Assembly (NCBI GenBank): GCA_963819605.1
Contig: CAWFWU010000010.1
Location: 101,710-165,709, forward strand
Direction of reading: 5' to 3'
DNA from: an uncultured Alphaproteobacteria bacterium
Lineage (GTDB): Bacteria; Pseudomonadota; Alphaproteobacteria; Rhizobiales; Hyphomicrobiaceae
Length of the DNA stretch: 64,000 nucleotides
Under the pieces are notes generated by a model, which worked only from the letters and a program-made list of their open reading frames with translations, was not told where the DNA came from and did no database searches. The first letter of the stretch is position 1; every line of letters begins with the position of its first letter. A program made the position numbers and the translations under genes. Positions 24,221 to 44,926 of this stretch are shown one piece after another.

Positions 24221-24471
24221 CTCCCTGACGTATCAGAGATCGCGTGCGATGGAGCAGGCCGGACACCACGTGCCACTGGCTGCACTCATTTGCTACCCGC
24301 AGCAGCGGTTCCACCAGCGCCGCATGGCCTGCGTTGAGAGCGTTCTTTCTATAAATCTTTCTTTCTTGCGATGTTGCAAGATTGCAATATAGCCAACTTG
24401 GTTTCTGTCTTTGTTTCTTTCAAAATTTCATTCTTGAAAGCAATATTCAGGACACCAACGAAAGATCACAG

Positions 24472-25158: not shown

Positions 25159-25467
25159 ATGAACCGCATGAAGGACTTCACCGCCCACAACCCAACTGGC
25201 GCCACGCCTGGCATGGAGCCGGTCAACCTGGATGTGTTGAAAGCAGCCGTTGCCAATGAAATGGCACCAACGCCTGCAAGTAGCCCACAGGCAGCTACGT
25301 CAAGTCAGAGCCTGACGCCCAAGAACTTGCGCTTGCCGAGCGATCTGGTGGATTTCATCGACTACGTCTACACCAAAGACCACCGCATGAAGAAACAGGA
25401 CGCCTACACGTTGGCGCTAGAAAAGTTCTTCCGGCCCCTCATGCCAAACCGTGGCAACAGCGTTTGA
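25159..25467 (+). CDS. Small ParA partner, probable C-terminal ribbon-helix-helix (ParG-like)
   Basis: Abuts parA (TAG-ATG); disordered N-terminus then KNLRLPSDLVDFIDY...KKQDAYTLALEKFF. Confidence 0.55.
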   Translation: MNRMKDFTAHNPTGATPGMEPVNLDVLKAAVANEMAPTPASSPQAATSSQSLTPKNLRLPSDLVDFIDYVYTKDHRMKKQDAYTLALEKFFRPLMPNRGNSV

Positions 25468-26518
25468 CGACGACATGGACGGCCACGCTCAGCCACCTGC
25501 CATCCACGACGCCGACTTACTTGCCGAACGCGATGCTGCCCGGGGCAGGCCTGGGTTCAACTACATTGAAATGTCCCTGATTGCCCGCCAAGTGGAGCGT
25601 GACAGGCTTGCGGCTCTAACACCCAGCCAACGACGCCGCGCCGTCACCCGCACAAGTTTTGAAACACAGCCCGCCAGCCTTGATGACTTGCGTCTCATCC
25701 ACAGCGTTCTGGCGATTTGTGGCCTTCCGTACAAGCGCCTGCCAATCGAGGTCCGCGAGTTCGAACGCCGCCAAAGCAACATGGCCCTGGACGTGTCAGC
25801 AGGTTCACTCCGCAACGACAGGGGTGAAAACATTCCCCAGCCGCTGCCATTCGGCCCAAAAGCACGGCTTGTCTTGATGCATCTATGCAGCCAGGCCGTT
25901 TACAACAGGTCACCGACCATCGACCTCAATGAAACCTTCACCGCATTTGTTCGTGAGCTAGGATTTAACGACAGCGGCGGCCCTCGGGGCGCACTTACCG
26001 CATTCAAGCATCAGCTCAACGCACTGGCGGCCCGCACGATGAAGGTCAGCGTCTGACAGCCCGGCGTTGGCGTTCGGACAGAGCACATCACACCGATCAA
26101 GAGCTTCGAGCTTTGGCTGTCCGACAACATGCACCAGCGGGCGCTTTGGCCAAGTAGCCTGACATTCAGCACCGACTTTTATGAAAGCCTTCGCGCCCAT
26201 GCCGTGCCGCTGAATATTCGGGCCATCTGAGCCTTTGCAGGTTCGGCCCGCACGCTCGATGCCTATTATTGGCTTGGCTACCGCATGACCCGTCTCAAAG
26301 CGCAAACAGTGATTTCATGGGATGCGCTGGCTGAACAATTCGGCGAAGGCTATGCCCGCCAACGCGATTTCAAAGCCAGCTTCATCCGCGATATCGCCGA
26401 CATCAAAGAGCTATTCCCGAAGCTTCCAGTGACGACGAACGAACGGGGTCTCCTACTCAAACCTGCGAGCTTAGAAGCGTTGGCCTTACCTGCGCCACGA
26501 TCCAAAAAGTCATCATAA
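25451..26518 (+). pseudogene. repA: Plasmid replication initiator (RepA_C family) with two in-frame TGA stops (26054, 26228)
   Basis: HSVLAICGLPY, LPFGPKARL, QLNALAA, LWPSSLTFSTDFYESL..HAVPL, LDAYYWL.YR, ISWDAL.EQFG..Y; one frame throughout. Confidence 0.85.
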
Positions 26519-28240: not shown

Positions 28241-31063
28241 ATGTCGTCTGGCCCACGTGCTTTTCCGGATCATTTTATTTCAATTTATCAGTCAGCCGTG
28301 GAAGAATTGGCGCGAGATCGTGCCAAAAGATTGCCCGAGGCCAACGGTCCCGAGACAGAGACGAAGGGATTGGATTTCGCCTCCGCCATGAATGCGGCGG
28401 CAGCTGAACTCGGTGCGCTTCGGATGCACGGACGCGTGTACAGCCCGCAAGGAGAGCAAAAGTCGATCGGCACTGTGATGACTTGCGCCAGCCTCGGGCT
28501 CAAGTACATGGAGGCGCTTATAAAAGGCGACGAAGTCGCGGCCAGAGCGATCGAGGGCAAGTTAAGCGACGCAAAGTGTGACCCTGGATGGGCCTCGACA
28601 CTGGGCGAATATTACAGTTCTTATCTTGGTGCCGATGGCGCTAGACGACCGATCCCATATCGTCGCGCCGCAACAGTTGGACCGGCCGTCATCACGATTC
28701 AAGCGAACGCACGAATCGCAATCGTTGGAGACTGGGGCACTGGAGCAATCCCTGCCATTCGCGTCGCACGGCAGATCGCGCAGCTCAAACCGGACATACT
28801 GGTCCATTTGGGCGACATCTATTATTCTGGCACGCCAAATGAATGCAAAGATAACTTCATCGACATTCTTGATAATGTCTTTGATCGTGCGCGGACCAAG
28901 CTACCCGTATTCACACTGGCCGGCAATCACGACATGTACAGTGGCGGCGCCGGCTTTTATTCTCTCATCGACCGGCTCAATGAAGGGCCTATGCAGCAGC
29001 GAGCCAGCTTTTTCTGTCTCAGAAGTTCTGACAATGCGTGGCAGCTTCTGGGGATGGATACCGGGCTCAACGACTACGCGCCGCTGTCGGTCACTGAGAC
29101 CCTAACCCACCTGGAGGCTGACGAAGAACAGTGGCACCTTGATCGAATCGTAGAATTTCCCGGAAAGACAATACTGCTCTCGCATCATCAACTCTTCTCA
29201 GCGTTCTCTCAAATTGGCGCCGAGAACGAACGAGGACGGCTTTGCGCACATAATCCGCGACTTCTCGAAAGCTATGAGAAGTTCGTCAAAACAGGAAAGA
29301 CGATCTCGGCCTGGTTTTGGGGGCACGAACATAGCCTATACCTCTATGACGGCTATTTGAACCTATCGAGAGGCCGCTGCCTAGGCCACGGCGCCATTCC
29401 GGTTTTCGCCAGTGAAGAACCCTACTTGCCGCTTAGAAATCTCCGCGACCCGCCTTCCATTCTTAAAGACTTGAATGTCGGGCACTCAGGTGACGTGTAT
29501 GCAAACGGCTTCGCAATTCTGGATCTAGAACCGGCGAAGAAAGACGCGACGGTCAGATATTTTCAGGATGTACAAGGCGCCACGAACGAAGTCTATTCCG
29601 AGTCCCTCGTAGCCGCCGGCAGTGCAAGCAAGACAAAGCCTATGCCGCCGCCAACATCGGCGGAGACCATATTTTTTGCGCCTCAGGCTCCGAACCGGAA
29701 AAAGCGCAGCAGCAAGGTAGCGTTTGTGGTTGGCAATCAACACTATCGCGACGTCTCGAAACTGACGAACCCGGCCGCCGACGCCGGTATCGTGCGCACT
29801 GAATTGGAGCAACTCGGCTTCGAAGTCTATGGCGGAGTGAATTTCGACTTGAATGCAATTCGCGATCGTTTTGACTACTTCGAAAGCCAGATTGGCAAAG
29901 CCGAGGTCGCCCTGCTTTATTACTCTGGGCACGGCGTGCAAATCGATGGTCAGAACTACGTGGTCCCGATCGATGGCAGCATGACGTCACTTTTGGCGTC
30001 GGCGCGCGAGACGCAGATACAGAGCCTCGTCAACCGGATGGCACAGAGCAGCAAGAAATGCTTGGTCTTCCTGGATGCATGCCGCGACAATCCTTTCATC
30101 GAGAGCATCGCCGAACCAGCAAACAATGCCAAGCGCGTTGGTTTACAGGAGACCCAATCAATTGCCGCCTTTATCTCTCACGGCCTGGCTCCGGTGGACG
30201 TCAGAGGAAAAGTTCAGGCCTTCATCGCTTTTGCCGCCGCGCCTGGGAAATATGCTTACGGCAGCGACGGCCGCTACAGCTACTTCACGCAGGGTCTCGT
30301 CTCGCACCTTAATACGCAAGGTTTAAGTATCGATGGCCTGATGAATCGCGTGCGCCAAGACGTCAAGGGCGCAACAGGCGAGACACAAGATCCTTGGAGT
30401 CAGACCAACCTCACTAATGACTACTACTTCAAGCCGGCTTCCCTGCTCCCCGCTTATGTCATGGCCCTTTTAGGTGCCCTCTCTGGATTCGTGACAGCTT
30501 GGAGAACCTTCGATCCGACGGGGCTCTTCCAAAACGGATGGAACGGATGGGGTGGCGCATTTTTCGGACTCGTTGTGGGTTTCGGCGTGTGGCGATGGGG
30601 GCGGCGCAATTTTTGGGCGGCGGGCCTGGCATTTCTGTCTGTCACGCTGGCCTTCAAACTTGCCTTTTTCTACATGGACTGGATCGGCACCACTGACCTA
30701 GACAAACGCTCAAACAGAATCGGGCCATTTTTTGAAAACGCAAAGCTGATGCGCGATATGATAGGTGCCTCGATTGCCGCAAGCATCTGCATGTTAGGTA
30801 CGATTCTCGGTGCCGCCGTCACCACGCCCGCGCTACGTCGTCCAAACGCCTACGTCATGATGCTATTTGCTGGCCTCCTCGTCGTTCCAGTTGTGGGGTT
30901 GGTAATGGCGGCCCAGTCATTTGAACTCCCCGGATTCAACAAAGATGACTATGATCGTCTCGCTGCGATCTTAGGTGCGATGACTTGGCAGGCCGGTCTA
31001 GGTTTCACGATTGGCTACGGACTGAGCCAATACGTACCCGAGCCTGGTGAGCGAAAGCTTTGA
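28241..31063 (+). CDS. Metallophosphoesterase + caspase (C14) + multi-TM fusion protein
   Basis: GDWG, HLGDIYY, GNHD, SHH and GHEH phosphoesterase motifs; FVVGNQHY, YYSGHG and FLDACR caspase dyad; hydrophobic C-terminus of about six helices; ggaggg RBS. Confidence 0.88.
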   Translation: MSSGPRAFPDHFISIYQSAVEELARDRAKRLPEANGPETETKGLDFASAMNAAAAELGALRMHGRVYSPQGEQKSIGTVMTCASLGLKYMEALIKGDEVAARAIEGKLSDAKCDPGWASTLGEYYSSYLGADGARRPIPYRRAATVGPAVITIQANARIAIVGDWGTGAIPAIRVARQIAQLKPDILVHLGDIYYSGTPNECKDNFIDILDNVFDRARTKLPVFTLAGNHDMYSGGAGFYSLIDRLNEGPMQQRASFFCLRSSDNAWQLLGMDTGLNDYAPLSVTETLTHLEADEEQWHLDRIVEFPGKTILLSHHQLFSAFSQIGAENERGRLCAHNPRLLESYEKFVKTGKTISAWFWGHEHSLYLYDGYLNLSRGRCLGHGAIPVFASEEPYLPLRNLRDPPSILKDLNVGHSGDVYANGFAILDLEPAKKDATVRYFQDVQGATNEVYSESLVAAGSASKTKPMPPPTSAETIFFAPQAPNRKKRSSKVAFVVGNQHYRDVSKLTNPAADAGIVRTELEQLGFEVYGGVNFDLNAIRDRFDYFESQIGKAEVALLYYSGHGVQIDGQNYVVPIDGSMTSLLASARETQIQSLVNRMAQSSKKCLVFLDACRDNPFIESIAEPANNAKRVGLQETQSIAAFISHGLAPVDVRGKVQAFIAFAAAPGKYAYGSDGRYSYFTQGLVSHLNTQGLSIDGLMNRVRQDVKGATGETQDPWSQTNLTNDYYFKPASLLPAYVMALLGALSGFVTAWRTFDPTGLFQNGWNGWGGAFFGLVVGFGVWRWGRRNFWAAGLAFLSVTLAFKLAFFYMDWIGTTDLDKRSNRIGPFFENAKLMRDMIGASIAASICMLGTILGAAVTTPALRRPNAYVMMLFAGLLVVPVVGLVMAAQSFELPGFNKDDYDRLAAILGAMTWQAGLGFTIGYGLSQYVPEPGERKL

Positions 31064-31451
31064 GAGCACATTGCACGGCAATATCGGTGGCCGGGTAGTC
31101 CACGGGCACGGGTTCTTATACAGCGCCGGAAGAGTGCAGGTTGAAATGTTGCTGGCGTCCGCGGACGCTATCAGCCTCGGCGTCAGCATACATGATATGG
31201 CGAGCGGCGAGCTAGCGTTCAGGAAGGGGACTGCCGCAAAGCCCCTTCGTCAGTACGACCGCAAAGCAGAATCGCTGCGCGCGTAGCATCGCTCGATCTC
31301 CACCAAGTTGGGAAATCTGGTCGTCACCTACTTGGATCAGAAGGCCGCGTTCCGTTTAGAGTTTCCGGAATTGTTTCCTCAGCTCAATGCGTTAGTTGAA
31401 ATTGGCACGCGCGTTCGGCTCGAACAATTTCGAGCCCCAAGGAGACGATAG
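31047..31451 (+). pseudogene. Small hypothetical ORF with one in-frame TAG (31284-31286)
   Basis: The 79-aa ORF continues in frame for 54 protein-like codons (HRSISTKLGNLVVTYLDQKAAFRLEFPELFPQLNALVEIG...) to TAG 31449-31451; overlaps the end of the caspase gene. Confidence 0.4.
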
Positions 31452-31665
31452 CGGCGCTCGGCCAATCCTACCACACGCAAGGATGCATTGGGACGCGACG
31501 TCCGTCCGGATAATGAACCCGATTGCCCGACTGGCGTAGCCGTGCATCAGCCAATGGTACTTGTACGCGGGCGGGCTGGCGTTCCGGCGGAGATCGGGTA
31601 GTGTTGTGGTCCGCGCCTCATATTCTTGCGCGGATGACCCAGGCTTTTTTGCCGGTGAGTTCGAC

Positions 31666-33759
31666 ATGAGTTTTTCTCGTCGCATTCTCAATGAGCTGCG
31701 CTCGTACCCCGGTATGGTCCGCTGGTATGATCCAAAGCAGTTGTCGGAAACGGGAATGCGGGACGTTATTACCCGCATTTTTGGCCAATTCGCCGACCAA
31801 CGCATGCTCCAGGCGACTGTCGACGGCTTCAGCCCAGAAGTGATGCAGAACGTGGTGAGCAAGCGCCACGATTACTCCAAAGACGACCAGTTCAAGCGCG
31901 CCGAGGCCGTCTGGGTCGATTACACCGCCGATCTTGGCGACGGTTTTGACGCGACGTACGCCATCGCGTCGCTCATTTCGGCCGGTGAGGTCGAGGTCGA
32001 AGGTGCCGGTACGTTGCCGGGCGGCAAATTTCTTTTGCTGGGCGGAGATCAAGTCTACCCATTTCCCTCGCGCGCTGACTACGAGCAGAAATTCGCCAAG
32101 CCTTATGCTATGGCCTTGCCGCGCACGCCGTCGCAACCAGCAGAGCGTTTCATGTTTGCACTGCCTGGCAACCATGATTGGTATGACGGACTCAACGCCT
32201 TCGACAACATGTTCTGTAAGGCGCGCTACGCGTCGTATGGAACCGAGCGCTCTGACAACAGGATCGGCGGCTGGGTCTGTCCGCAGCACCGCAGCTACTG
32301 GTCGATTAAGTTGCCACACAATTGGTGGATCTGGGGCGCCGACATCCAGCTGTCGCATTATCTCGATGCCGGACAAATCCTCTACTTCAAAGAAGTAGCG
32401 CGGGATATGAAGGCCGCCTCGCCGGCCGATCCGCCCAAGGTCATTTTGTGTATTTCCGAACCGAGCTGGATGAAGGAGCGACGCAGCGAGGACCAAGGCG
32501 AGCAGAACCTCGACACCATTGTCAACATTGCGCTCGACAACCACGCCCGCATCGCCGCCGTGCTGACGGGAGACACTCACCACTACAACCGTTATTTCGC
32601 ACCAAGCCACGGCTTGAACCTGATCACGGCCGGCGGCGGTGGCGCATATTTTTCGCCAACCCACCTGCTGAAAGACAAGCTCAAGATGAAGTTCGAGGGC
32701 GATGACATCGATCTCGAACTCAATTGCAAGGCGTCGCCAAAGCCCGGCGCGCCACCTCAAGAAAGCTGTTGGCCGCCACGGGCGCGCTCGCGCTTGCTAT
32801 CGTTCAACACGTTGGGCTTTCCATTGCGAAACTACGCCTTCGCGCTTGCGCTTGGGTTCATCTATTGGCTCTTGGCTTGGCCGTTCGCCTTTTCCGAGGT
32901 TGCGTTCAAAGATTATCAGCAGCACACGGTCCACGAATGGGTGTTTGGCGTGAAGGCCACATCGGCCGGTGAGGCGGTGCGCGGTGCAACGGCAACTCTG
33001 CAATCGGCTGTGCAGGCCGTGGAGCCTCTCTCGTGGTCGGAGATGCCGCTCCTCACCTTGCAGGCGGGTATCTCCAACCCGGTTCTGGGTCTGTCAGCAC
33101 TCGTCATTCTGCTGATCCTCATTTTCTATGCCGAGGCGCCCAGCATGATTCAAAGGGTCTTGATGGGCTTTTTGCACTGGCTCGCCCATCTTGCTACTGC
33201 GGTCGTCATGTTCGTGGTGTTGACCCACCTGCTGACCCAAATTATCAACGCACTTGTAACTGTGTCGGCGCTCGTTCCGTCGGCGTTGCGCGTCAGCCAG
33301 ACGACGGCGGAATTGGCTGGGCACTTCCTGGCGCCACCGCTGATGTGGGGAATCGGGGGATTCTGCGGCGGACTGGTCTGGGGGCTCTATCTAACAATTT
33401 CGTGTCTGTTTAATCGTCATTGCGATCAGGCGTTCTCTTCGATGCGGCTGCCGATCTACCGTCACTTCCTGAGAATGAAGATCGAACGCGACACGTTGAC
33501 GATCTATCCGATCGGGTTGACTAATGTGCCGTCGCGGTGGCGGTGGAGGGCTGCGGAGAAGGATCAATGTGGTCTCATCACGGGGCCGCTCTTCGTGCCG
33601 CAACGGCCGTTCAAACCACAATTGATCGACGGTCCAATCGTCATTCCTGCGAACAGCTTGCGGGGGCGGGATCTGTCTATGCGCAAGAAGGGGCCGCTGT
33701 CACTTTCCCCTTCCGAGCAATTGCCGTCGATTGGTTTGGTCCGCGTCAGAACGGAATGA
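31666..33759 (+). CDS. Membrane-anchored metallophosphoesterase
   Basis: DYTADLGDG, GGDQVYP, PGNHDWYD and GDTHHY motifs, followed by several TM helices; start set at MSFSRR (31666). Confidence 0.85.
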   Translation: MSFSRRILNELRSYPGMVRWYDPKQLSETGMRDVITRIFGQFADQRMLQATVDGFSPEVMQNVVSKRHDYSKDDQFKRAEAVWVDYTADLGDGFDATYAIASLISAGEVEVEGAGTLPGGKFLLLGGDQVYPFPSRADYEQKFAKPYAMALPRTPSQPAERFMFALPGNHDWYDGLNAFDNMFCKARYASYGTERSDNRIGGWVCPQHRSYWSIKLPHNWWIWGADIQLSHYLDAGQILYFKEVARDMKAASPADPPKVILCISEPSWMKERRSEDQGEQNLDTIVNIALDNHARIAAVLTGDTHHYNRYFAPSHGLNLITAGGGGAYFSPTHLLKDKLKMKFEGDDIDLELNCKASPKPGAPPQESCWPPRARSRLLSFNTLGFPLRNYAFALALGFIYWLLAWPFAFSEVAFKDYQQHTVHEWVFGVKATSAGEAVRGATATLQSAVQAVEPLSWSEMPLLTLQAGISNPVLGLSALVILLILIFYAEAPSMIQRVLMGFLHWLAHLATAVVMFVVLTHLLTQIINALVTVSALVPSALRVSQTTAELAGHFLAPPLMWGIGGFCGGLVWGLYLTISCLFNRHCDQAFSSMRLPIYRHFLRMKIERDTLTIYPIGLTNVPSRWRWRAAEKDQCGLITGPLFVPQRPFKPQLIDGPIVIPANSLRGRDLSMRKKGPLSLSPSEQLPSIGLVRVRTE

Positions 33760-33781
33760 TTGCGTCCGCAGAAATCTTGTA

Positions 33782-35596
33782 ATGAGTGCAGCCATGACGC
33801 TGAATTTGTCGAAATCAATAGAACAGATGGCGCCGTCCTACGATGCTGTTGTGGTCGGTTCGGGCTATGGGGGTGGCGTCGCTGCCTGCCGGCTCGCGCG
33901 CTGTGGCCTGTCAGTTGCGGTGCTTGAACGCGGCCGCGAATATGCCCCGGGTGAATTCCCAACAAACCCGATGCAGGCGACCAGGGCCCTTCAGGTCACA
34001 GGCGCTTCGGGAACCATGGGTTCGCCAATGGCGCTCTTTGATATACGTGCCGGAGACGGGGTACATGTCTTGAAGGCTTGCGGGCTCGGGGGCACCTCGC
34101 TCATTAACGCCGGCGTGTGCCTATCGCCCGATGAACGCGTTTTCAAATCCTCCTTGTGGCCCGGCGAGATTCGGTCCGACGGCATGCTGGCCGACGGCTA
34201 TTTGAAGGCGCGCGCCATGTTGCGTCCCGCAGCCCAGCCTGGTTGGCGCGATTTTCCAAAAGTGAAGGCGCTCGCCACCGCCGCGCAGGCCTTCAACGAA
34301 ACGCTGCAGCCGGCCCCTATTCACGTTGCCTTTTCCAAGGGACCAAATGCCGCCGGTGTCGAGCAGCCGGCCTGCACGGCATGCGGCGATTGCTGCGGCG
34401 GCTGCAACGTCGGTGCCAAAACGACCGTGCGCAACACATACCTGGCGGCGGCCAATGCGGCGGGTGCCGCGATCTTTACACAAACCGACGTGCGTCTGGT
34501 CAGCAAGGAGAGCGACGGACGCTGGCGCGTGACGTTCGCGGCGCTTGGCGATGGGCACGCGGGCCATGAATATTTCGTGCTAGCGGGTATCGTCGTCCTG
34601 GCAGGGGGGACGCTAGGTTCGACAGAAATACTCATGCGCTCCCGCGCTGCCGGCTTGGCGCTGTCCGACACGCTCGGGGCTCGCGTAACGAGCAATGGTG
34701 ATGTCATCGCGCTCGCCTACAATACGGTGTATCCCGTGCATGGTGTCGGTGTTGGTCATCCCTCCCGTTTAGGCGGCATTCCGGTTGGTGCTGCGGTCAA
34801 TGGCCTGCTGGACCTACGCGACGGTGTGCCACTCGAGGAGGGCTTGGCCATCGTCGAATGTGCTCTGCCGAGTTCGCTGGCACCCTTGCTGCCCGGCTTG
34901 CTTGCCGCCGGTTCGGCTGTCTTCGGCAAGGATGCCGATCGCTCATTGGCGAGCGAGATGGGCGAGATCAAACGTACGGCATCCGGTTTTCTTGGGGGTG
35001 CCTCTGGCGGCGCTGTCAATAACACGGAGACATTCTTGGCCGTCGGGCACGATGCCGGTGATGGCCGCATGGCATTCGAGGATGACAGGGTTCGATTGAT
35101 ATGGCCGCAGGCGGCCAAGCATCAGGTGTTCGCACGTATCGACGACGCGATCAAAAAAGCATCGTATGCGCTCGGCGGCACCTACTTGCGCAATCCGGCT
35201 TCAATAGAGTTTCTGGGAGGAAACTTATTGACCGTCCATCCGCTCGGTGGCGCGGTCATAGCGGCCGACCGTACAGGAGGCGTCGTCAATCATAAGTGCC
35301 AGGTCTTCGACACTACGCCCGGAACCTTTCCAGACAACGTGCATCGCGGACTCTACGTGTGCGATGGGTCCGTCGTCCCATGCCCGCTCGGTGTGCATCC
35401 TCTGCTGACGATCACAGCTATTGCCGAGCGAGCGATGGTGCACCTGGCAAACGACCGCAAGCTGATTGAAAAACCCCGTTCGGTACCACAGATAGCGCCG
35501 GTGTCCGCGCGGCCAGTCTTGACCCCCGGCATTCCGGTTCCTCCCGCGCCGCGGCGGATCAGTCTTTGGAATTTTATTGCCGGGCGCTGGCGTTGA
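33782..35596 (+). CDS. Cholesterol-oxidase-like (ChoD-type) GMC oxidoreductase
   Basis: VVVGSGYGG, LERG, GLGGTSLINA, CTACGDCCGGC, TVHPLGG, YVCDGS..P..LGVHP..TITAIAER. Confidence 0.88.
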   Translation: MSAAMTLNLSKSIEQMAPSYDAVVVGSGYGGGVAACRLARCGLSVAVLERGREYAPGEFPTNPMQATRALQVTGASGTMGSPMALFDIRAGDGVHVLKACGLGGTSLINAGVCLSPDERVFKSSLWPGEIRSDGMLADGYLKARAMLRPAAQPGWRDFPKVKALATAAQAFNETLQPAPIHVAFSKGPNAAGVEQPACTACGDCCGGCNVGAKTTVRNTYLAAANAAGAAIFTQTDVRLVSKESDGRWRVTFAALGDGHAGHEYFVLAGIVVLAGGTLGSTEILMRSRAAGLALSDTLGARVTSNGDVIALAYNTVYPVHGVGVGHPSRLGGIPVGAAVNGLLDLRDGVPLEEGLAIVECALPSSLAPLLPGLLAAGSAVFGKDADRSLASEMGEIKRTASGFLGGASGGAVNNTETFLAVGHDAGDGRMAFEDDRVRLIWPQAAKHQVFARIDDAIKKASYALGGTYLRNPASIEFLGGNLLTVHPLGGAVIAADRTGGVVNHKCQVFDTTPGTFPDNVHRGLYVCDGSVVPCPLGVHPLLTITAIAERAMVHLANDRKLIEKPRSVPQIAPVSARPVLTPGIPVPPAPRRISLWNFIAGRWR

Positions 35597-35661
35597 GCCG
35601 GCCGCCTGACGCGGCGCGAATGACTGCCCGTGCCGCCGTCCATGTGTTGTGAACTAAGGGG

Positions 35662-38600
35662 ATGCCTATGCGCCGGCTTTCGCGATCAGTCGCCGACCTC
35701 AAGATGCAATACGACGTCATCGTCGTCGGATCGGGATACGGCGCTGGCGTTGCTGCCTCCCGCATGGCGCGCTGCGGACGCCGCGTTTGCGTGCTGGAAC
35801 GCGGCCGCGAATTTGCGCTCGGCGAGTTTCCCGACCGGATCGGAGAAGCCCGCGAAGAGACGCGCATTACGACAAGTGGCAAGTCGGTCGGGTCGGAGTT
35901 GGCCCTGTACGATTTACGGCTCGGCCGCGACATGAACGTGCTGCTCGGCTGCGGGTTGGGCGGGGGATCTCTAATCAACGCCAACGTCGCCTTGCCACCG
36001 GACGATCGAATTTGGAATGATCCAGTATGGCCGCAGGCCTTACGCGGCGATAAGGATGGCACGCGCCTTGAAGGCTTCGTGCGTGCCCGCCAGATGTTGC
36101 GGCCCGTGCCCTACCCAAATGCCGTTCCATTGCCCAAGCTCAAAGCGCTGGAGATGGCGGGACAGGCGCTCGGTGCCGATGCCGTTCGCCCGCCCATCAC
36201 GGTGACGTTTGTACCCACCAGGAACCACGCCGGTGTTGAGCAGCCGGCCTGCACCTTGTGCGGTGATTGTTGTGCCGGATGCAACGTCGGCGCCAAGACG
36301 ACGGTGCAGTTCTCCTATATGGCCGATGCCGAAAGCCACGGCGCTGAGATTTTTACGCAGGTACGCGTCACGCGGCTGGCACGCGAGCGCGGGCGCTGGC
36401 GTATTTATTTCCAACCGCTCGGCATGGTGCGCGACAAGTTCGGCGCGCCCGAAATGTCGCTGATCGCGGAGGTTGTTGTTCTGGGTGCGGGCGCGTTGGG
36501 CTCGACCGAGATACTGTTACGTTCGGCGGCGAACGGCCTGCCCGTTTCGTCTGCTGTGGGCCAACGCTTTACCGGCAACGGAGATGTGCTTGCGTTCGCC
36601 TACAATAACGACGTGGAGATCAACGGCATCGGCTTTGGTCATCCACCGCAAGCCAACCCCGGCCCGGTCGGGCCCTGCATCACGGGCATCATCGATATGC
36701 GCGACAGCCCGCTGCTTGACGATGGCATGGTTATCGAGGAGGGTTCCATTCCTTCTGGGCTCGCGCCTATCCTTCCCGCCACGATGGCGGGCGGCGCGCG
36801 GGCCTTCGGAGTCGATACCGACTTCGGCGTGAAAGACGAGTTGGACGAGGCTGCGCGCCAAGCGATGAGCCTCGTATTCGGTGCCTACCACGGCGCAGTA
36901 CACAACACGCAGACGTTTCTGGTGATGGCACACGACGGCGCCGGCGGCCGCTTGCAACTTGAAAACGACAAGCTTGAAGTGTCCTGGCCGGGCGTTGCGG
37001 AACTGCAGGTTTTCAAGACCATCAGTGAGCGCCTGGAAAAGGCAACCCGCGCGACTGGGGGGACTTACACGCGAAATCCGATGACGACGACGCTGCTGGG
37101 AAATAATCTCATCACGGTGCATCCCCTCGGCGGGTGCGGCATGGCCGAGAGGCACGATGCCGGGGTCGTCAATCACAAGTGCCAGGTGTTCGATGCAAGC
37201 CCGGGCGCACCCCCCGATGCCGTGCTTGAAGGACTTTACGTTTGCGATGGCGCCGTCATGCCGCGTTCGCTCGGTGTCAATCCATTTCTGACGATTACGG
37301 CTCTTGCAGAGCGCGCCATGATCCATTTGGCACGCGACTATCAGTGGTCGTTCACAACTGAGGCTCGCAAGCCGGCGCCGGCGATGGCCTTTGTGCCACC
37401 CGTGCCTGTGCCGTCATTTTCACAGGAACCCGCGACCGGGGTTGAATTCACCGAGCGTATGGCCGGTTACCTGTCGTTCGAACCGGTCGTGCCGCACGAC
37501 ACTGCGTTCGCCAAGGGAAAAGCCGCCGATCAGTCCTTCGCCTTCACGGTGACGGTGCTCATCGACGATGTGGATCGTTTCATTGCTGATCCGGCGCACA
37601 AGGGCCGCCTCATCGGGACGGTGGATTGCCTTGCGCTTTCGCCGTCACCGCTCGATATCTTTGATGGTACGTTCAATCTGATGCGCGCCGAACAGTCGGC
37701 GGTGGAGACGAAGCGCTTCGACTATGCGTTCTCTGCTGTGACGCGTGAGGGTGCGGAGTATCAATTTGCCGGCTACAAGATCGTGCGCAATGATGCCGGA
37801 CTTGATTTGTGGCGCGATACCACAAAGCTTTATTTTGATATCGCCCGGGGGCGTGTTGGGCGGCAGGGCGCACTGGGCCGAGGCATGCTGGAAATCCGGC
37901 CCAAGGATTTTGCCGTCCAACTGCAGACCGTGCGTGGCACCGGCGGTACTGGGACCCTTGATCGGACGAAAGCGGTCGCCAAGTTCGGCCAGTTCTTCGG
38001 GGGGGAATTGTTCAGCACATTTGGCGGCCTCTTCACACGCAGTACGCGATACGACGCGGGCGCACCGCGCAAAAAGCGGAATCTGCGGGCTCCTGAACCC
38101 GAACTTCATATGTTCAAGGCGGCGGACGGCAAGCTGTTGCGTTTGACGCGCTATAATGGCGGGACGAAAGGGCCGGTACTTTTGGCGCACGGCCTGGGCG
38201 TATCGAGCCTCATCTTTTCCATCGATACCATCGATACTAATCTGCTCGAATACCTAGTTGCCGCCGGCTACGATTGCTGGCTGCTCGACTTCCGCGCCAG
38301 CATCGATTTGCCATATGCCAAGACCCAGTGGAGCGGCGACGACGTGGCGCTCTACGATTATCCTGCTGCCGTGGCGAAGGTGCGTGCGGAGACCGGCGCG
38401 CAGTCCGTGCAGGTCGTGGCGCACTGCTTTGGCGGCACGACATTCTCGATGGCGTTGCTGGCGGGGCTCGAAGGTGTGCGCTCGGCGGTCATCTCGCAGA
38501 TCTCGACCGATTACGTCGTGCCCTATTTTCCGCAGAAGCTGCTGGCGCAACTCCATTTGCCGCAACTCTTCGATCACATCGGTCTCGACGTCATCGACGC

Positions 38601-39114
38601 GCGCGCCACGGTGGCTGATGGCATGGGAGAGCGCCTGCTCGACTGTTTCTTGCGCTTCGCAGTTCCGATGCCGCGAGCGGAACGCAACAGAAGCGCGACG
38701 AGCGCGCGGATCAGTGCACTTTACGGGCGCCTCTATCAGCTCGACCAGCTCAACGCCGAAACATTCGAGGCGGGACTGCCGGAGATGTTCGGCGAGGCCA
38801 ATATCTCGGCATTCAAGCAGCTCGCTTACTTCGTGCGGCTTGGGCATGTCGTGGATAAAACCGGGGCTGACGTGTACCTTCCCAACATTGCAAGGATGGC
38901 CATGCCGATCCTGTTCGTGCATGGCGCAGCCAACGCCTGCTTCAAGCCAGAGAGTACACAGCGCACGCTCACGCGGTTGGCTGCGGCCAACGGTGCAGGG
39001 TACTACGACCGCAAGGAGATCCCAGGTCACGGCCACATCGACTGTATATTCGGAAAGAACGCCGTGAGCGCTGTCTATCCTTATATACGGCGGCATCTGG
39101 ACGCGAGCGCCTGA
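35662..39114 (+). CDS. GMC oxidoreductase + unnamed central domain + alpha/beta hydrolase fusion
   Basis: Same GMC motifs (GSGYGAG, CTLCGDCCAGC, TVHPLGG); central VEFTERMAG... domain; hydrolase with LAHGLG, VVAHCFGG and GHGHIDC. Confidence 0.88.
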   Translation: MPMRRLSRSVADLKMQYDVIVVGSGYGAGVAASRMARCGRRVCVLERGREFALGEFPDRIGEAREETRITTSGKSVGSELALYDLRLGRDMNVLLGCGLGGGSLINANVALPPDDRIWNDPVWPQALRGDKDGTRLEGFVRARQMLRPVPYPNAVPLPKLKALEMAGQALGADAVRPPITVTFVPTRNHAGVEQPACTLCGDCCAGCNVGAKTTVQFSYMADAESHGAEIFTQVRVTRLARERGRWRIYFQPLGMVRDKFGAPEMSLIAEVVVLGAGALGSTEILLRSAANGLPVSSAVGQRFTGNGDVLAFAYNNDVEINGIGFGHPPQANPGPVGPCITGIIDMRDSPLLDDGMVIEEGSIPSGLAPILPATMAGGARAFGVDTDFGVKDELDEAARQAMSLVFGAYHGAVHNTQTFLVMAHDGAGGRLQLENDKLEVSWPGVAELQVFKTISERLEKATRATGGTYTRNPMTTTLLGNNLITVHPLGGCGMAERHDAGVVNHKCQVFDASPGAPPDAVLEGLYVCDGAVMPRSLGVNPFLTITALAERAMIHLARDYQWSFTTEARKPAPAMAFVPPVPVPSFSQEPATGVEFTERMAGYLSFEPVVPHDTAFAKGKAADQSFAFTVTVLIDDVDRFIADPAHKGRLIGTVDCLALSPSPLDIFDGTFNLMRAEQSAVETKRFDYAFSAVTREGAEYQFAGYKIVRNDAGLDLWRDTTKLYFDIARGRVGRQGALGRGMLEIRPKDFAVQLQTVRGTGGTGTLDRTKAVAKFGQFFGGELFSTFGGLFTRSTRYDAGAPRKKRNLRAPEPELHMFKAADGKLLRLTRYNGGTKGPVLLAHGLGVSSLIFSIDTIDTNLLEYLVAAGYDCWLLDFRASIDLPYAKTQWSGDDVALYDYPAAVAKVRAETGAQSVQVVAHCFGGTTFSMALLAGLEGVRSAVISQISTDYVVPYFPQKLLAQLHLPQLFDHIGLDVIDARATVADGMGERLLDCFLRFAVPMPRAERNRSATSARISALYGRLYQLDQLNAETFEAGLPEMFGEANISAFKQLAYFVRLGHVVDKTGADVYLPNIARMAMPILFVHGAANACFKPESTQRTLTRLAAANGAGYYDRKEIPGHGHIDCIFGKNAVSAVYPYIRRHLDASA

Positions 39115-39378
39115 TGGCCGTTGCGGCGGTATTCGAGACAATCATGCACTCCAATGGAAAATCGCAACTCGCCGACCATGCGCTTTCTGCATCGAGGAGC
39201 GAGTCGAGCAGAGTCCGCAGCCAGCGAATCCTGACGGTTCGCGAGGCAAGGACTGAAGACCGGACTTGTCCCAAGGCCGAAGGTTAGGCCGCGTCACATT
39301 TCTACGCGCTACTCGGGCTTAAGCAGACGAGCAAGCCATCAGCCAGCCCAAACTACAACCGCACGATCGGATTGAAGT

Positions 39379-40281
39379 GTGATGGTCACCACACGTCCAG
39401 CTCTTGACAGCTCGAAACTGAGTGAACGGCTTGAGCACTTCATTGCACTGATCGCCAGCGAAGATCATGCCCAGGAAATATCGCATCGTTGCGGGCTGCC
39501 ACCCGAGCGCGCGCGACTACTGCTCAATACCTACTGCAACGAAGCGCGTGTCGGGCTATCCCTGGTCGCGGCCAGCCTGCGACCAGGCCTGCGTGTGCTG
39601 GAAGTTGGAACCGGTGTCGGGTTGCTTGCAAGCGTCCTGGCGGAACAGGGCGTCAACATTGTGGGCGTCGAGCCTGGCGATGCCGGATTCGGATTTATGC
39701 CAACGCTGGCGTCCATCGTGACGGTCTGCGTGGGGTTAGAACGGCCTTTTGTGCCGTTGTCGATCGGCGTCGCCGCACTTGAGCCCGCACAGCATGGCCA
39801 GTTCGATCTCATCTACTCCATCAACGTCTTAGAACATCTGAGCGCTCTAGACGCTGCCATTGCGGCCATGGCGCGGGTGCTAGCCGAAAACGGCACCATG
39901 GTGCATATGTGCCCCAACTATGCTGTACCCTATGAGCCGCATTTGACCATTCCTCTGATTCCAGGTGCCCCCTATTACACGCGGTATCTGTTTCCAAGCC
40001 ACGCGCGCCGTTATCCTGGCTTGTGGGACGAATTGAACTTCATTACCGCGGGCCGCCTCCGCCGCCTCAGCCGCAAGCATGGGCTGACGGCAAGATTTGA
40101 TTCGGGCGTGATGGGAGCCATGGTGCGGCGAATTCTGACGGACCCGATCCTCGCCGCACGCCAGGGTGCGGGAATGCGTATGACAGCCGCAGCGTTGCAG
40201 AAAACCGGGGGGCTCGCAGTTATAGACCGCATTCCAGCTGGTCTTTCGACACCAATGATTGCGCGGCTGGCGAAGAGTTAG
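39379..40281 (+). CDS. Class I SAM-dependent methyltransferase
   Basis: VLEVGTGVG, VGVEP, FDLIYSINVLEH, LAENG. Confidence 0.85.
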   Translation: MMVTTRPALDSSKLSERLEHFIALIASEDHAQEISHRCGLPPERARLLLNTYCNEARVGLSLVAASLRPGLRVLEVGTGVGLLASVLAEQGVNIVGVEPGDAGFGFMPTLASIVTVCVGLERPFVPLSIGVAALEPAQHGQFDLIYSINVLEHLSALDAAIAAMARVLAENGTMVHMCPNYAVPYEPHLTIPLIPGAPYYTRYLFPSHARRYPGLWDELNFITAGRLRRLSRKHGLTARFDSGVMGAMVRRILTDPILAARQGAGMRMTAAALQKTGGLAVIDRIPAGLSTPMIARLAKS

Positions 40282-40663: not shown

Positions 40664-40960
40664 GTGAACCGTGACGACGCTATCGCCCGCATCAAGAAGT
40701 CCGAACAGGCTATTCGTACTTTTGGCGCCTCTGCACTCTATTTATTCGGCTCGACCGCTCGCAACGAAGCCAAACCCACGTCCGACGTCGATATCTTCAT
40801 CGATAGCGACCCAAAAAAGCCGCTCGGGTTTTTGGAATTCTTTGGCTTGGAAGAGCTGCTGGAAGACACCCTCGGTGCCAAGGTCGATCTCTGCACGCGT
40901 CCCGAGCTTCACCCGGCGTTGCTTGCCGAAATTGAACAGAGTGCCATTCACGTCCTGTGA
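40664..40960 (+). CDS. Minimal nucleotidyltransferase (MNT) antitoxin
   Basis: LYLFGSTARNEAKPTSDVDIFID; GTGA overlap with the next gene. Confidence 0.9.
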   Translation: MNRDDAIARIKKSEQAIRTFGASALYLFGSTARNEAKPTSDVDIFIDSDPKKPLGFLEFFGLEELLEDTLGAKVDLCTRPELHPALLAEIEQSAIHVL

Positions 40961-41298
40961 TCCGCTCAACGCGCCCGCGCCTTGAGGATATCGAGCAGAA
41001 CATCACGCTTGCGCTGGCGTTCGTTCATCAGCGCACCCTCAAGCATGTCACTCACGACTTTGCCCTGCGCTACGCGCTCCAGCACGCTCTTTTGATCATT
41101 TCCGAGGCGGTGAAAAATCTTCCCGCTGACCTGTGCGCCGAACACCCCGAAATCCCGTGGCGCAAAATCAAATCTCTCGGCGACAAGTTGCGGCACGAAT
41201 ACCACCGCATTAGTCCAGAAATTATTTGGGACGTGGCAACGGTTCACCTCAAACCGCTGCACCAAGTCGTCAAGGCAATGCTCGTACACGCCGATTAG
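40957..41298 (+). CDS. HepT/DUF86 HEPN ribonuclease toxin
   Basis: IISEAVKNLP...PEIPWRKI..LGDKLRHEY...IIWD. Confidence 0.88.
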   Translation: MIRSTRPRLEDIEQNITLALAFVHQRTLKHVTHDFALRYALQHALLIISEAVKNLPADLCAEHPEIPWRKIKSLGDKLRHEYHRISPEIIWDVATVHLKPLHQVVKAMLVHAD

Positions 41299-41498
41299 CA
41301 CGGGATAGCGTCCTGACTACCCTTGCGGTGTAGGCCCAACAACCGTCCAAGAGCCCACTCGCGAGGGTTTGCTTCATTTAACGCGGTTGCTAGCCCCCCC
41401 GTAAACAACAAGCCCATTCAGAGGGATATTGGTTTTGAGGGTGACGTCAAAATGCTCAGACCACTCGCCGGACGTGTTGGATTGGGGTAATATGAGGC

Positions 41499-42179
41499 AT
41501 GGTCGCCACGTTCGCCCCCAAACTCGATATCCTTCCGCCAGCGCAAAGGCAGCTTTGGGGTGAGCTATCGTCTGTGCCCGAAGAATTTGTCCTCTATGGC
41601 GGAACGGCGCTGGCGCTGCATCTCGGGCACCGCGATTCGATCGATTTTGATTTCTTCGCCAATCGCGACTTTGATCCAAAGCAGCTTTACGACGGCGTGC
41701 CGTTTCTTCAAGGTTCCCGCATTATCCAACAGCAGCCCAGCACGCTAACCTGTCTTGTCGGCCGGGACGGCGACGTGAAGGTATCGTTTTTCGGCGTGCC
41801 GCGGATTGCACATATCCTGCCGCCCCACATTTGCTCCGACAATGGCTTGAAAGTCGCATCCCTGCTGGATCTCGCGGGCACAAAGGCGGGTGTGGTGCAA
41901 CAGCGGGCGCAGGCGAAGGACTATATGGACATTGATGCCTTGATCCAGGCTGGCATTGGCCTGCCCGAAGCCCTGGCCGCAGCCAAACTTGTTTATGGCG
42001 CATCTTTTGCTCCGACCCCGACGCTCAAGGCTTTGACCTTCTTTGGGGACGGAGATTTGGCCACACTACCGATGGGGGTGCGGCAGCGTCTCGTTCTTGC
42101 TGCGGCGCAGGTCGACCCTTTGCGGCTGCCGAGCCTTACACGGACCGACCTTCGGACCACAAACCGTGACACCGAGTAA
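41499..42179 (+). CDS. AbiEii/AbiGii-type nucleotidyltransferase toxin
   Basis: FVLYGGTALALHLGHRDSIDFDFF, KDYMDI. Confidence 0.88.
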   Translation: MVATFAPKLDILPPAQRQLWGELSSVPEEFVLYGGTALALHLGHRDSIDFDFFANRDFDPKQLYDGVPFLQGSRIIQQQPSTLTCLVGRDGDVKVSFFGVPRIAHILPPHICSDNGLKVASLLDLAGTKAGVVQQRAQAKDYMDIDALIQAGIGLPEALAAAKLVYGASFAPTPTLKALTFFGDGDLATLPMGVRQRLVLAAAQVDPLRLPSLTRTDLRTTNRDTE

Positions 42180-42185
42180 ATCAGC

Positions 42186-42485
42186 ATGACCTCACTGCCC
42201 GCCACGCCCGAACTCTTGCGCGCCGCCCGCCGCATCATATGGTTCATGGAGCCTGAGCAAGCTTTGGAAAATACCGTGCAGTTGCTTGCCTATGCCATGA
42301 AGCATTCGATGGACGAGGACATGGCCTTGCTTCTTGAACATGTGGGTATGGATGGACTGAGGCAAGCACTTGAAAGCGCGCCGCCCGGCATCATCGACGA
42401 GCGTTCGTGGTCCTATTGGAATGCCAGGATCGGGCGCTATCCGGCTCCACCGATGCCACAACGCACCTTTGGTGAGCGCGTGTAA
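42186..42485 (+). CDS. Small hypothetical protein, probable partner of the AbiEii gene
   Basis: Starts 6 bp after the toxin stop; RRIIWF...APPGIIDERSWSYWN. Confidence 0.65.
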   Translation: MTSLPATPELLRAARRIIWFMEPEQALENTVQLLAYAMKHSMDEDMALLLEHVGMDGLRQALESAPPGIIDERSWSYWNARIGRYPAPPMPQRTFGERV

Positions 42486-42528
42486 GTACGCTCCCTTGTC
42501 ATAATTACTCTTTATACTTATAATTAAC

Positions 42529-42828
42529 ATGATGAATCGGTCCGAAGTCTTGTCACGCCTCCGCGATGCCGCCATGGCCTTGCGGGCGTTGGGCGCCTTA
42601 CATCTCTTTCTTTTTGGATCGACCGCGCGAGATACCGCCCGACCTGAATCGGATGTCGATATTTTCATCGACCGCGATCCCGAACAGCCAATGGGCCTCT
42701 TGGGCTTGGCGAAGCTTGAAGCCCAGCTTGAGACAATTCTTGGAACACCCGTCGATGTTACGACGCGTGGAAGTTTGCATCCCCTTCTGCGGGCTTCAAT
42801 TGAACAGCAGGCCATCCAAGTCTTTTGA
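42529..42828 (+). CDS. Second MNT antitoxin
   Basis: LFLFGSTARDTARPESDVDIFID. Confidence 0.9.
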   Translation: MMNRSEVLSRLRDAAMALRALGALHLFLFGSTARDTARPESDVDIFIDRDPEQPMGLLGLAKLEAQLETILGTPVDVTTRGSLHPLLRASIEQQAIQVF

Positions 42829-43196
42829 CAATGGCCCGTTCCCCCCTGCTCCGTCTTTTTGATATGCGGGCCGCGATCCAGGCTGCCTTCGCGATGACGG
42901 AGGGCGTCAGCAAAGGCCTTTTAGATGCTGACACTGTTCTTCACGCGGCGTGCATGTTCAAGATTCTTATCACGGCTGAAGCTGCTCGTGACCTGCCGCA
43001 GGATTTGTTGAAAGCCAACCCAGACGTTGATTGGCGCGGCCTCATCAACATGGGTAACTTGCTCAAACACCAGTATTTCCGGATCGAGACGGACGTCGTG
43101 TGGGAAACCATTAAAACGGATCTTCCCATTTTGCTCGCGGCTGTCGAACGCATGATCAAAGTTGAGCAGGCCTCGATGTTGGAACCGGTGGGGTGA
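42825..43196 (+). CDS. Second HepT/DUF86 HEPN toxin
   Basis: ITAEAARDLP...PDVDWRGL..MGNLLKHQY...VVWE. Confidence 0.85.
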   Translation: MTMARSPLLRLFDMRAAIQAAFAMTEGVSKGLLDADTVLHAACMFKILITAEAARDLPQDLLKANPDVDWRGLINMGNLLKHQYFRIETDVVWETIKTDLPILLAAVERMIKVEQASMLEPVG

Positions 43197-43318
43197 CACG
43201 TGCTCATTGCGGGACCGAAGGATTGGCGCGTTAAAACAACAACTATTCCGGAAACATCTGTATTATTGCGCTAAATAACGATGTTCGCTACGGCTCCAAC
43301 CCCTTAGGGCCGTTCTAT

Positions 43319-43738
43319 TCACTTCGATCCGGAAACGGCAACAACGTAGTGCGCTCCCCACCCTGCAGGCTCGGCAGAGTGATGTTCGTTAAAGAGTCCC
43401 CGCCGGGCAATCTCGGCGCCAAGCATCAAAACTTCCTGCCGTGTGGCTTTCCCCAAAATAACCAGCTCGCCCAATCGCTGGCGGGCGATGTTGTCCCCCG
43501 CACCTTGAATGCGGGCCAATTGGTAGCCGAAGTCGGCCTCTGTGCGTGCCGTCGCGATGCCTTCTGCCGTACGGGTGGCAGGACGTGCCTCAAACGGCCC
43601 CAGCAATTCATCAAGGGCGCAAGTGCTACGGACGATGGTCATGTCATTCATCTCCACGCCATGAACATTAGCACAAATCTGTGCCTGACAGGACTCGTGC
43701 ATGAAGGGTACCGTCGGGTTAGGGCGTTTTCGCAACAA
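43319..43738 (-). CDS. Hypothetical protein, weak VbhA-antitoxin-like helix pattern
   Basis: FGYQLARIQG...LGELVILGKATRQEVL; true start uncertain. Confidence 0.3.
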   Translation of the reverse strand: MLRKRPNPTVPFMHESCQAQICANVHGVEMNDMTIVRSTCALDELLGPFEARPATRTAEGIATARTEADFGYQLARIQGAGDNIARQRLGELVILGKATRQEVLMLGAEIARRGLFNEHHSAEPAGWGAHYVVAVSGSK

Positions 43739-43776
43739 ATTTTCTGCAGGTCATTGATATAAAAATTAAATCCGCA

Positions 43777-44884: not shown

Positions 44885-44926
44885 CCAAGGTCGGGGTCGA
44901 GGGTTCGATCCCCTTCGCCCGCTCCA
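44885..44926 (+). repeat. attR core (42 bp, 3' half of tRNA-Gly)
   Basis: Identical to 19112-19153; extends by cctt with one mismatch. Confidence 0.95.

Follow-up and report, generated by a model that had tools for sequence, protein, structure and literature searches.

A decayed tRNA-Gly island carries a widely conserved, predicted phosphoesterase-GMC-hydrolase operon next to a separate phosphoesterase-caspase gene

Introduction

Effector domains of bacterial conflict systems include caspases and calcineurin-like phosphoesterases (PMC8195603; bioRxiv 10.1101/2022.07.19.500537), and caspase-like effectors of such systems, among them the EACC1-associated caspases, have been described (Kaur et al., eLife 2020 and 2021). 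Both domains occur, fused in one protein, in the locus studied here. It lies within a 64,000-nucleotide stretch of DNA from an uncultured alphaproteobacterium of the Hyphomicrobiaceae (contig CAWFWU010000010.1, 300 kb long), referred to in full as the window, in which five long, intact and co-oriented open reading frames (ORFs) occupy 28.2-40.3 kb of the plus strand inside a decayed island at a tRNA-Gly gene. We term these genes g1 (a phosphoesterase-caspase fusion), g2 (a membrane metallophosphoesterase), g3 (a GMC flavoenzyme), g4 (a fusion of a GMC enzyme, a middle domain, hereafter mid, and an alpha/beta hydrolase) and g5 (a methyltransferase). A first-pass annotation had joined them into a single candidate system. 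We found three units instead, g1, g2-g3-g4 and g5, the second of which is conserved across many phyla.

The remaining genes also have described counterparts. The GMC parts of g3 and g4 share the GMC fold, the GxGxGG motif for flavin adenine dinucleotide (FAD) and the catalytic histidine in HPLGG with the GMC-type class I cholesterol oxidases ChoA/ChoB of Streptomyces and Brevibacterium (PDB 1B4V, 1COY), and g4 additionally retains the asparagine of their GVNP motif. The hydrolase part of g4 resembles lysosomal acid and gastric lipase (PDB 6V7N, 1HLG) in its alpha/beta hydrolase fold with a cap (target TM-score 0.65-0.72), and the polyhydroxyalkanoate (PHA) synthase PhaC in the cysteine of its nucleophile elbow. 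Purple acid phosphatases and SMPDL3A/B, in turn, share with g2 a calcineurin-like fold and a conserved set of metal-binding motifs. Finally, the surrounding DNA is built like tRNA-integrated islands and integrative mobilizable elements: the insertion is at a tRNA 3' end and marked by a direct repeat, the integrase gene lies next to the tRNA, genes for a relaxase, a coupling protein and partition are present, and the cargo includes toxin-antitoxin genes.

Results

Separate neighborhoods and homology blocks define three units

Relatives of g2 were collected by scanning one genome per species, which confirmed at least 571 of them, counted among the 600 matching stretches listed; the best 80 loci were kept and combined with four earlier loci, and neighbors were counted within 10 kb. 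None of these 84 g2-family loci carried a g1-like or g5-like sequence. Conversely, the GMC module was present in none of five g1-family contexts (four caspase-type, one trypsin-type). DNA homology to the 86%-identical relative of g1 was confined to 28156-31053 and that to the best relative of g2-g4 to 31664-39118, so that homology stops exactly at the borders of the two units; closest relatives come from Hyphomicrobium and Hyphomicrobiaceae metagenome-assembled genomes. GC content at third codon positions (GC3) was 0.61 in g1 versus 0.67-0.72 in g2-g4. Gaps of 602 bp and 264 bp separate g1 from g2 and g4 from g5, respectively, and the former spacer showed no homology to the flanks of either the g1 relative or the g2-g4 relative. 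Together, the separate neighborhoods and homology blocks, the long spacers and the difference in GC3 show three independent units. The region is likely the mosaic cargo of a decayed integrative, mobilizable element at tRNA-Gly, in which g1, g2-g3-g4 and g5 have evolved independently of each other.

The first-pass annotation had described six co-oriented ORFs, mostly with short gaps or overlaps. The common orientation was borne out and is unremarkable, because most island genes lie on the plus strand. Short gaps, however, were found only within g2-g3-g4 (22 bp between g2 and g3, 71 bp between g3 and g4), and the sole candidate for a sixth gene, a 79-residue ORF at 31047-31286, lies outside the DNA that is homologous to the closest g1 relative and is not credible, leaving five credible genes. 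Alignments and motif positions confirmed the intact frames and catalytic motifs reported for these five, and the domain calls (a caspase, two metallophosphoesterases, two GMC enzymes and a methyltransferase) were right by Pfam. An Rfam search returned tRNA only, with no riboswitch in the spacers, and a scan for promoters and terminators gave counts equal to the level of shuffled sequence.

These results bear directly on the proposal that all five or six genes act as one protease-gated defense, cell-death or signaling system. The genes are adjacent and co-oriented, the island also carries toxin-antitoxin and Abi-type genes, and the caspase and calcineurin-like phosphoesterase are both listed as conflict effector domains in the two reports cited at the outset. 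Yet the neighborhood recurred at none of the 84 g2 loci and in none of the five g1-family contexts, the homology blocks are separate and the spacers long. A search of PADLOC-DB 2.0 gave weak, generic matches only (caspase 30 bits, PDC-S10 15.6, mad2 36.9) and none for g2 or g4, and the close relatives of g2-g4 reside in stable, syntenic chromosomal settings that are not typical of defense genes. The first-pass annotation had itself named separately occurring homologs as evidence against its proposal, and this is what we observed for the caspase gene and the methyltransferase when running the neighborhood check. The one-system reading is thus largely refuted, and we regard it as highly improbable. 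The protease gate is likewise unsupported, and so is the defense or cell-death function proposed for the cluster. What survives is the idea of a membrane-localized, unnamed enzyme module that is under selection and plausibly modifies a lipid or ester; it is supported for g2-g3-g4, in view of the gene order, the domain fusions and the absence of matching systems in PADLOC and NCBIfam, but not for the cluster as a whole.

The g2-g3-g4 genes form a predicted operon found in many phyla

Ten loci carry a g2 relative of 48% identity or more, and each of them (10/10) keeps the order g2, GMC gene, GMC-mid-hydrolase gene; several also have their chromosomal flanks in common. For instance, the relatives at 73, 58 and 48% identity precede a GMC gene of some 600 residues and then a GMC-hydrolase gene of about 1144 residues, within flanks that differ and are housekeeping-like. 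Across the 84 g2-family loci, a GMC domain was found nearby in 39, mid in 37 and a hydrolase in 31; when only the 46 loci flanked by 6 kb or more in both directions were considered, the respective counts were 23, 22 and 20.

Separate genes for these parts make up one operon in Bacteroidota, Rhodothermales, Acidobacteriota, Gemmatimonadota, Rhodocyclales among the Betaproteobacteria and Streptomyces among the Actinomycetota. This extended operon begins with a Cys-type alpha/beta hydrolase, an acetoacetate-decarboxylase-family protein (at 11 loci and in Streptomyces) and small membrane proteins (DUF1772/Anthrone_oxy, DUF4345), followed by a patatin-mid fusion, a g2-type phosphoesterase and a GMC-mid fusion.

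Used alone as the query of an exhaustive search, mid retrieved 1328 representative proteins at E values up to 0.001, and we tabulated the architectures of the best 150. Mid stood alone in 63 of these and was otherwise part of GMC-mid-hydrolase (31), GMC-mid (26), mid-hydrolase (19) or patatin-mid (5) proteins. Four further architectures were each seen once: g2-mid-hydrolase (P0435), g2-mid (P0495), g1-type phosphoesterase-mid-hydrolase (P0390) and GMC-mid-g1-type phosphoesterase (P0406). Pfam revealed two additional fusions, SRPBCC-mid-hydrolase (P0419) and Metallophos-GMC-mid (P0494). The fusions and the synteny establish a functional link among phosphoesterase, GMC enzyme, mid domain and hydrolase, and the pattern of conservation identifies g2-g3-g4 as a genuine, widely conserved operon as far as sequence comparison can define one.

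Predicted enzymes of the module

The 697-residue g2 protein comprises a catalytic domain (about aa 80-340), four to five transmembrane helices (aa 392-582, by hydropathy) and a C-terminal beta domain; a listed 732-residue ORF from 31561 represents an upstream extension of the same gene. Its match to Metallophos (PF00149) is weak yet above threshold (27.6 bits, cut-off 21.5), and the motifs DLGDG, GGDQVYP, GNHD, GDTHHY and PTH are intact and invariant in the alignment. By score and metal-binding motifs, both g2 and g1 thus belong to the calcineurin-like metallophosphoesterases. The best Foldseek matches of the AlphaFold2 (AF2) model (pLDDT 70.6) were purple acid phosphatase and SMPDL3A, from which g2 differs in several respects: identity is only 12-16% and query TM-scores are low (0.19-0.24), the membrane helices and C-terminal beta domain are extra, and motif I reads D-x-G rather than D-x-H. 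Ten Hyphomicrobiaceae loci (L016-L020, L027-L031) hold a paralogous g2 subfamily at 34-41% identity with longer inserts in the membrane region. Most of them, with the exception of L029, lack a GMC, mid or hydrolase neighbor, so that g2-type enzymes appear to have other roles as well. We also observed a tandem pair of g2-family genes (L061, 148-3077) on a contig labeled Heliobacteriaceae.

The GMC domains of g3 and g4 are paralogous (about 51-53% identity in tblastn). Both have an intact FAD motif and HPLGG histidine, and their N- and C-terminal GMC domains score above the cut-offs, placing them in the GMC superfamily. In addition, both contain a CxxCxxCxxxC motif (aa 198-208 in g3, aa 195-205 in g4), which recurs in 39 of 40 module GMC proteins and is absent from the aligned Brevibacterium enzyme 1COY. 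This is the classical spacing of cluster-binding cysteines in ferredoxins; Fer4 Pfam matches in the module proteins are weak. From the ferredoxin-type spacing, the module GMC enzymes are predicted to be iron-sulfur flavoproteins, and probably act as dehydrogenases, not as oxidases. In Ralstonia the module adjoins a gene with a cytochrome c annotation, which fits this idea.

Among solved structures, the cholesterol oxidases come nearest to the GMC domains in sequence (E values of about 1e-19 to 1e-21), and the cholesterol oxidase model for ChoA/ChoB (NF058674) is the best NCBIfam match. Its scores of 154.5 bits (g3) and 150.7 bits (g4), however, lie far below the cut-off of 850. Compared to these oxidases, g3 and g4 carry the inserted cysteine motif and no secretion signal, and the GMC part of g4 (aa 1-560) is fused to two further domains. 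We set aside catabolism of choline or glycerophosphodiesters: choline dehydrogenase is also a GMC enzyme, but its model scored 15-23 bits versus about 150 bits for the cholesterol oxidase model.

In g4, about 260 residues without a Pfam match separate the GMC part from the hydrolase. They include mid (about aa 583-798, window 37414-38061), which is predicted to be beta-rich, has no Pfam family and gave nothing below E = 1.8 when its profile was compared to PDB sequences. Comparing mid with the acetoacetate-decarboxylase-like protein that the extended operon encodes led us to reject a relationship (hhalign probability 0.2). The hydrolase (aa ~824-1148) matches Abhydrolase_1 in Pfam, with Cys920 of AHCFGG as nucleophile; Cys920 and His1123 are invariant in close homologs, and in 30 of 31 hydrolase copies from different phyla, fused and free ones alike, a cysteine is the nucleophile (H-C-x-G). 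Foldseek matches of the g4 model, which are dominated by the hydrolase and not by mid, gave lysosomal acid lipase and gastric lipase as the nearest folds for the former, with PhaC and PhaZ also matched. Identity to the two lipases is 18-19%, and their nucleophile is serine. The PhaC models TIGR01838 and TIGR01836 scored only 21.1 and 20.4 bits, compared to cut-offs of 622.65 and 365.3; a cysteine nucleophile, although present, does not by itself define the PhaC family. Unlike the lipases and PhaC, the hydrolase of g4 follows a GMC enzyme and a new beta domain in one polypeptide.

Membrane lipid or ester processing as a candidate function

We infer that g2-g4 serve the processing of membrane lipids or esters rather than defense. 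In this proposal, the three proteins would act at the membrane on a hydrophobic ester or phospho-ester substrate. The Cys-nucleophile hydrolase of g4 would cleave or transfer an acyl ester via a thioester intermediate, the GMC flavoenzymes would oxidize the alcohol so freed, and the membrane phosphoesterase g2 would remove a phosphate-linked group, with mid acting as the hub that may tie the enzymes together. Both the reaction order and the nature of the substrate are proposed here on the basis of the predicted activities.

Two more specific substrates merit consideration. The first is a sterol- or hopanoid-type ester, catabolized or remodeled by a step like that of a cholesteryl ester hydrolase and one like that of cholesterol oxidase. 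Such a pathway is suggested by the cholesterol oxidases being the closest solved relatives and best NCBIfam match of the GMC domains, by the best fold match of the hydrolase, lysosomal acid lipase, being a cholesteryl ester hydrolase, and by an SRPBCC lipid-binding domain, which is fused to mid-hydrolase in P0419 and annotated beside the module in Rhizobium. It sits poorly with the cholesterol oxidase scores of 151-155 bits against a cut-off of 850 and with a cysteine in place of serine as nucleophile. Moreover, sterol synthesis is not known from many carriers (such as Pedobacter, Ralstonia and Streptomyces), and hopanoids are not known to be universal among them. On balance, we consider this substrate unlikely.

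The second would be 3-hydroxyacyl esters or a polyester, turned over by a PhaC-like Cys hydrolase with oxidation of the 3-hydroxy to the 3-keto group, followed by decarboxylation in lineages with the acetoacetate-decarboxylase-like gene. The nucleophile box indeed resembles that of PHA synthases, weak PhaC model matches and the PhaC and PhaZ fold matches point the same way, and the acetoacetate-decarboxylase-family gene belongs to the operon in the lineages named above. PHA genes also lie near the module, namely a class I PhaC gene beside it in L004 (17722-19650) and a class III PhaC/PhaE within about 6 kb on a Rhizobium leguminosarum plasmid (L101, 1-1408). This adjacency was seen only twice, however, at unrelated loci, the PhaC models reach about 20 bits against cut-offs of 365-622, and the phosphoesterase partner is left unexplained. 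Members of the acetoacetate-decarboxylase family are, furthermore, often not decarboxylases. Turnover of 3-hydroxyacyl esters thus appears doubtful too, and processing of a membrane lipid or ester, in the general form given above, is the reading we prefer.

g1 is a candidate stand-alone effector

The 940-residue g1 protein begins with a helical region, followed by a metallophosphoesterase (about aa 158-460; PF00149 at aa 158-365, 59 bits, cut-off 21.5), a Peptidase_C14 domain (aa 492-729; 118.4 bits, cut-off 21.4) and a C-terminal membrane region with at least four helices predicted from hydropathy (aa 735-890). The phosphoesterase motifs GDWGTG, GDIYYSG, GNHD, SHHQ and WGHEH are intact, as is the caspase dyad of His564 (YYSGHG) and Cys614 (LDACRD), which was kept in all eight aligned relatives with a C-terminal caspase; two further relatives carry the caspase at the N-terminus instead. 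Over its N-terminal 460 residues, that is the helical region and the phosphoesterase, g1 is 42-50% identical to proteins with a trypsin-like domain, a NUC1 nuclease or both, and more distant relatives bear PQQ propellers or no additional domain. g1 belongs to a family in which one N-terminal phosphoesterase module is combined with exchangeable protease or nuclease domains.

The contexts of the relatives differ. The 86%-identical relative (P0001) has a fragment of an N6 methyltransferase gene upstream, the 64%-identical one (P0002) lies between DUF4833 and DUF2141 genes with a NACHT/STAND gene nearby, the 49%-identical one (P0005) between DUF2141 and uvrB, and the 45%-identical one (P0009) between RtcR/RtcB/Ro60 genes and a DUF6361-helicase-Cas3-like block. 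In Bradyrhizobium, a relative with a trypsin domain is found among nSTAND1, EAD1-trypsin and lipase genes. GMC, g2-like and g5-like genes were absent from all five contexts. A small DUF2141 gene adjoins the g1 relative in two of the four caspase-type contexts, once upstream and once downstream; the window has none. Judged from these comparisons, g1 moves as a single gene and codes for a self-contained, membrane-anchored protein.

With the caspase-like effectors of conflict systems, g1 shares the Peptidase_C14 domain and its His/Cys dyad, the location of some relatives beside STAND/NACHT, RtcR-RtcB or helicase genes and the exchange of the caspase for trypsin-like or NUC1 nuclease domains. It differs from them in lacking an NTPase, EAD, EACC1 or adaptor partner and in standing alone with its caspase joined to a phosphoesterase and a membrane anchor; the NCBIfam model for EACC1-associated caspases (NF047832) scored 26.5 bits against a cut-off of 140. 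We did not find the g1 architecture described in the literature. The swaps of protease for trypsin-like or nuclease domains among its relatives make g1 a reasonable candidate for a stand-alone conflict effector, and it is probably an effector of this or a cell-death type.

Observations that speak for a link between g1 and the module

Several observations weigh against the three-unit reading. On the island, g1 sits immediately upstream of g2. Among 127 Ralstonia records matching the hydrolase region, three were inspected, and on the megaplasmids (L099, 7246-13960, and L100) a choD-annotated GMC-mid-hydrolase gene is followed by a 628-residue gene annotated as cytochrome c, with N-terminal membrane segments and CxxCH motifs, and then, two genes downstream of the fusion, by a 395-residue g1-type phosphoesterase (33% identity to g1, E = 7e-27). 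In Ralstonia pseudosolanacearum GMI1000, the choD-like, cytochrome c and phosphoesterase genes are found at about 1.466-1.473 Mb of the megaplasmid. The fusions P0390 and P0406 likewise unite a g1-type phosphoesterase with mid and with a hydrolase or GMC domain, respectively. The Ralstonia arrangement and P0406 imply that both phosphoesterase families of the window can partner the module. Furthermore, in roughly half of the wider g2 family no GMC gene lies within 10 kb, so that g2-type enzymes are not restricted to the module; none of the papers and curated families searched, those of PADLOC and NCBIfam included, names the g2-g4 module, and the literature searches gave no description of the Ralstonia gene; and a sequencing-run search found the sequence solely in metagenomic DNA runs.

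Conceivably, then, g1 is no chance neighbor but a protease-armed derivative of the module's usual phosphoesterase partner. It would work with g2-g4 on the same class of substrate, the caspase would be the output, coupling a membrane lipid or ester signal that the module produces or uses up to caspase-like proteolysis with a cell-death or defense outcome, and g5 would be unrelated. But the phosphoesterases that accompany the module resemble g1 no more closely than do generic members of the family (28-34% identity), the caspase- and trypsin-bearing relatives (42-86% identical) never adjoin the module, both stand-alone g1-type phosphoesterases that were examined lack it, and the g1 cassette occurs elsewhere with different flanks. 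We therefore hold partial coupling to be improbable, as regards both a shared substrate class and a descent of g1 from the module's partner, and retain g1 as a unit of its own.

g5 and the island setting

Genes for a glycosyltransferase, a DegT-type aminotransferase, a sugar dehydratase and an acetyltransferase accompany the closest relative of the g5 methyltransferase (61% identity). This relative ends a cluster (L092, 1-8870) that additionally holds an AMP-dependent synthetase and a second methyltransferase, the glycosyltransferase being of the GT2 type, and that looks like one for surface-glycan modification. Going by these relationships, g5 is orphan cargo outside the operon.

The last 32 bases of tRNA-Gly recur exactly at 44895-44926, for which the number expected by chance is 0, and alignment extends the repeat to about 42 bp (19112-19153 versus 44885-44926). 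The element bounded by tRNA-Gly and this repeat spans about 19.15-44.93 kb, or 25.8 kb. The tRNA gene at its left border, the repeated 3' part of that gene at its right border and the adjoining integrase give it the features of a tRNA-integrated genomic island (Table 1). The integrase, relaxase, split ParA, RepA_C and resolvase genes are fragmentary by Pfam, with only the last ~55 residues of the catalytic domain remaining in the integrase, and the TraG/VirD4-like gene is mostly intact; the description of the five genes as island cargo amid mostly broken mobility genes was therefore accurate. In contrast to described integrative mobilizable elements, most mobility genes are truncated here, and the cargo includes an operon that is chromosomal in relatives. 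The truncations indicate that the element is probably immobile today. A megablast search of the 12-kb block against plasmids gave no match. Unlike the mobility genes, the toxin-antitoxin-type genes at 20747-22456 and 40664-43196 (HTH+PIN, ParE, two MNT+HepT pairs and the AbiEii-like gene) are apparently intact. The ~2.1 kb upstream of g1 (26056-28156) have no credible ORF, the longest ORFs being without a Pfam match, and are probably decayed sequence.

Table 1. Features of the island and its cargo in the window
Feature	Coordinates	Strand	Description and basis
tRNA-Gly(GCC)	19079..19153	+	3' part forms the left island attachment site; ARAGORN and Rfam
Integrase fragment	19090-19521	-	Adjoins tRNA-Gly; Pfam
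Decayed mobility/maintenance block	19090..26056	.	Integrase fragment, relaxase fragment, HTH+PIN pair, ParE, TraG/VirD4-like gene, split ParA, truncated RepA_C; Pfam and ORF list
g1	28241..31063	+	940 aa, single-gene phosphoesterase-caspase cassette; Pfam, alignment, hydropathy
g1-g2 spacer	31064..31665	.	602 bp, no credible gene, no Rfam match
g2	31666..33759	+	697 aa, membrane metallophosphoesterase; start is the one on record
g3	33782..35596	+	~604 aa, GMC flavoenzyme; Pfam, NCBIfam, PDB alignment
g4	35668..39114	+	1148 aa, three-part fusion of GMC, mid and alpha/beta hydrolase
g5	39379..40281	+	300 aa, class I S-adenosylmethionine-dependent methyltransferase, Methyltransf_23; Pfam
Toxin-antitoxin-type cargo and recombinase remnant	40664..44349	.	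Two MNT+HepT pairs, AbiEii-like gene, resolvase N-terminal fragment; Pfam and ORF list
Direct repeat of tRNA-Gly 3' end	44885..44926	+	Right attachment site; exact match and alignment

Discussion

A candidate new defense system spanning the five genes is not upheld, which spares the cloning and phage challenge of the whole 12-kb block. The locus is of interest for the g2-g3-g4 module and for g1, each taken by itself, and not for the two combined. g1 remains of value as a compact, single-gene combination of phosphoesterase, caspase and membrane anchor. The module, in turn, is an operon conserved in many phyla, in which GMC enzymes with a ferredoxin-type cysteine motif meet hydrolases of the cysteine instead of the serine type, and in which a domain family absent from Pfam joins the module enzymes to phosphoesterases and patatin-like lipases. 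Since Ralstonia and Streptomyces carry versions of it, the module can be tested in tractable organisms. Defined by mid with its 1328 representative proteins, it would represent an undescribed, widespread bacterial pathway of lipid or ester processing.

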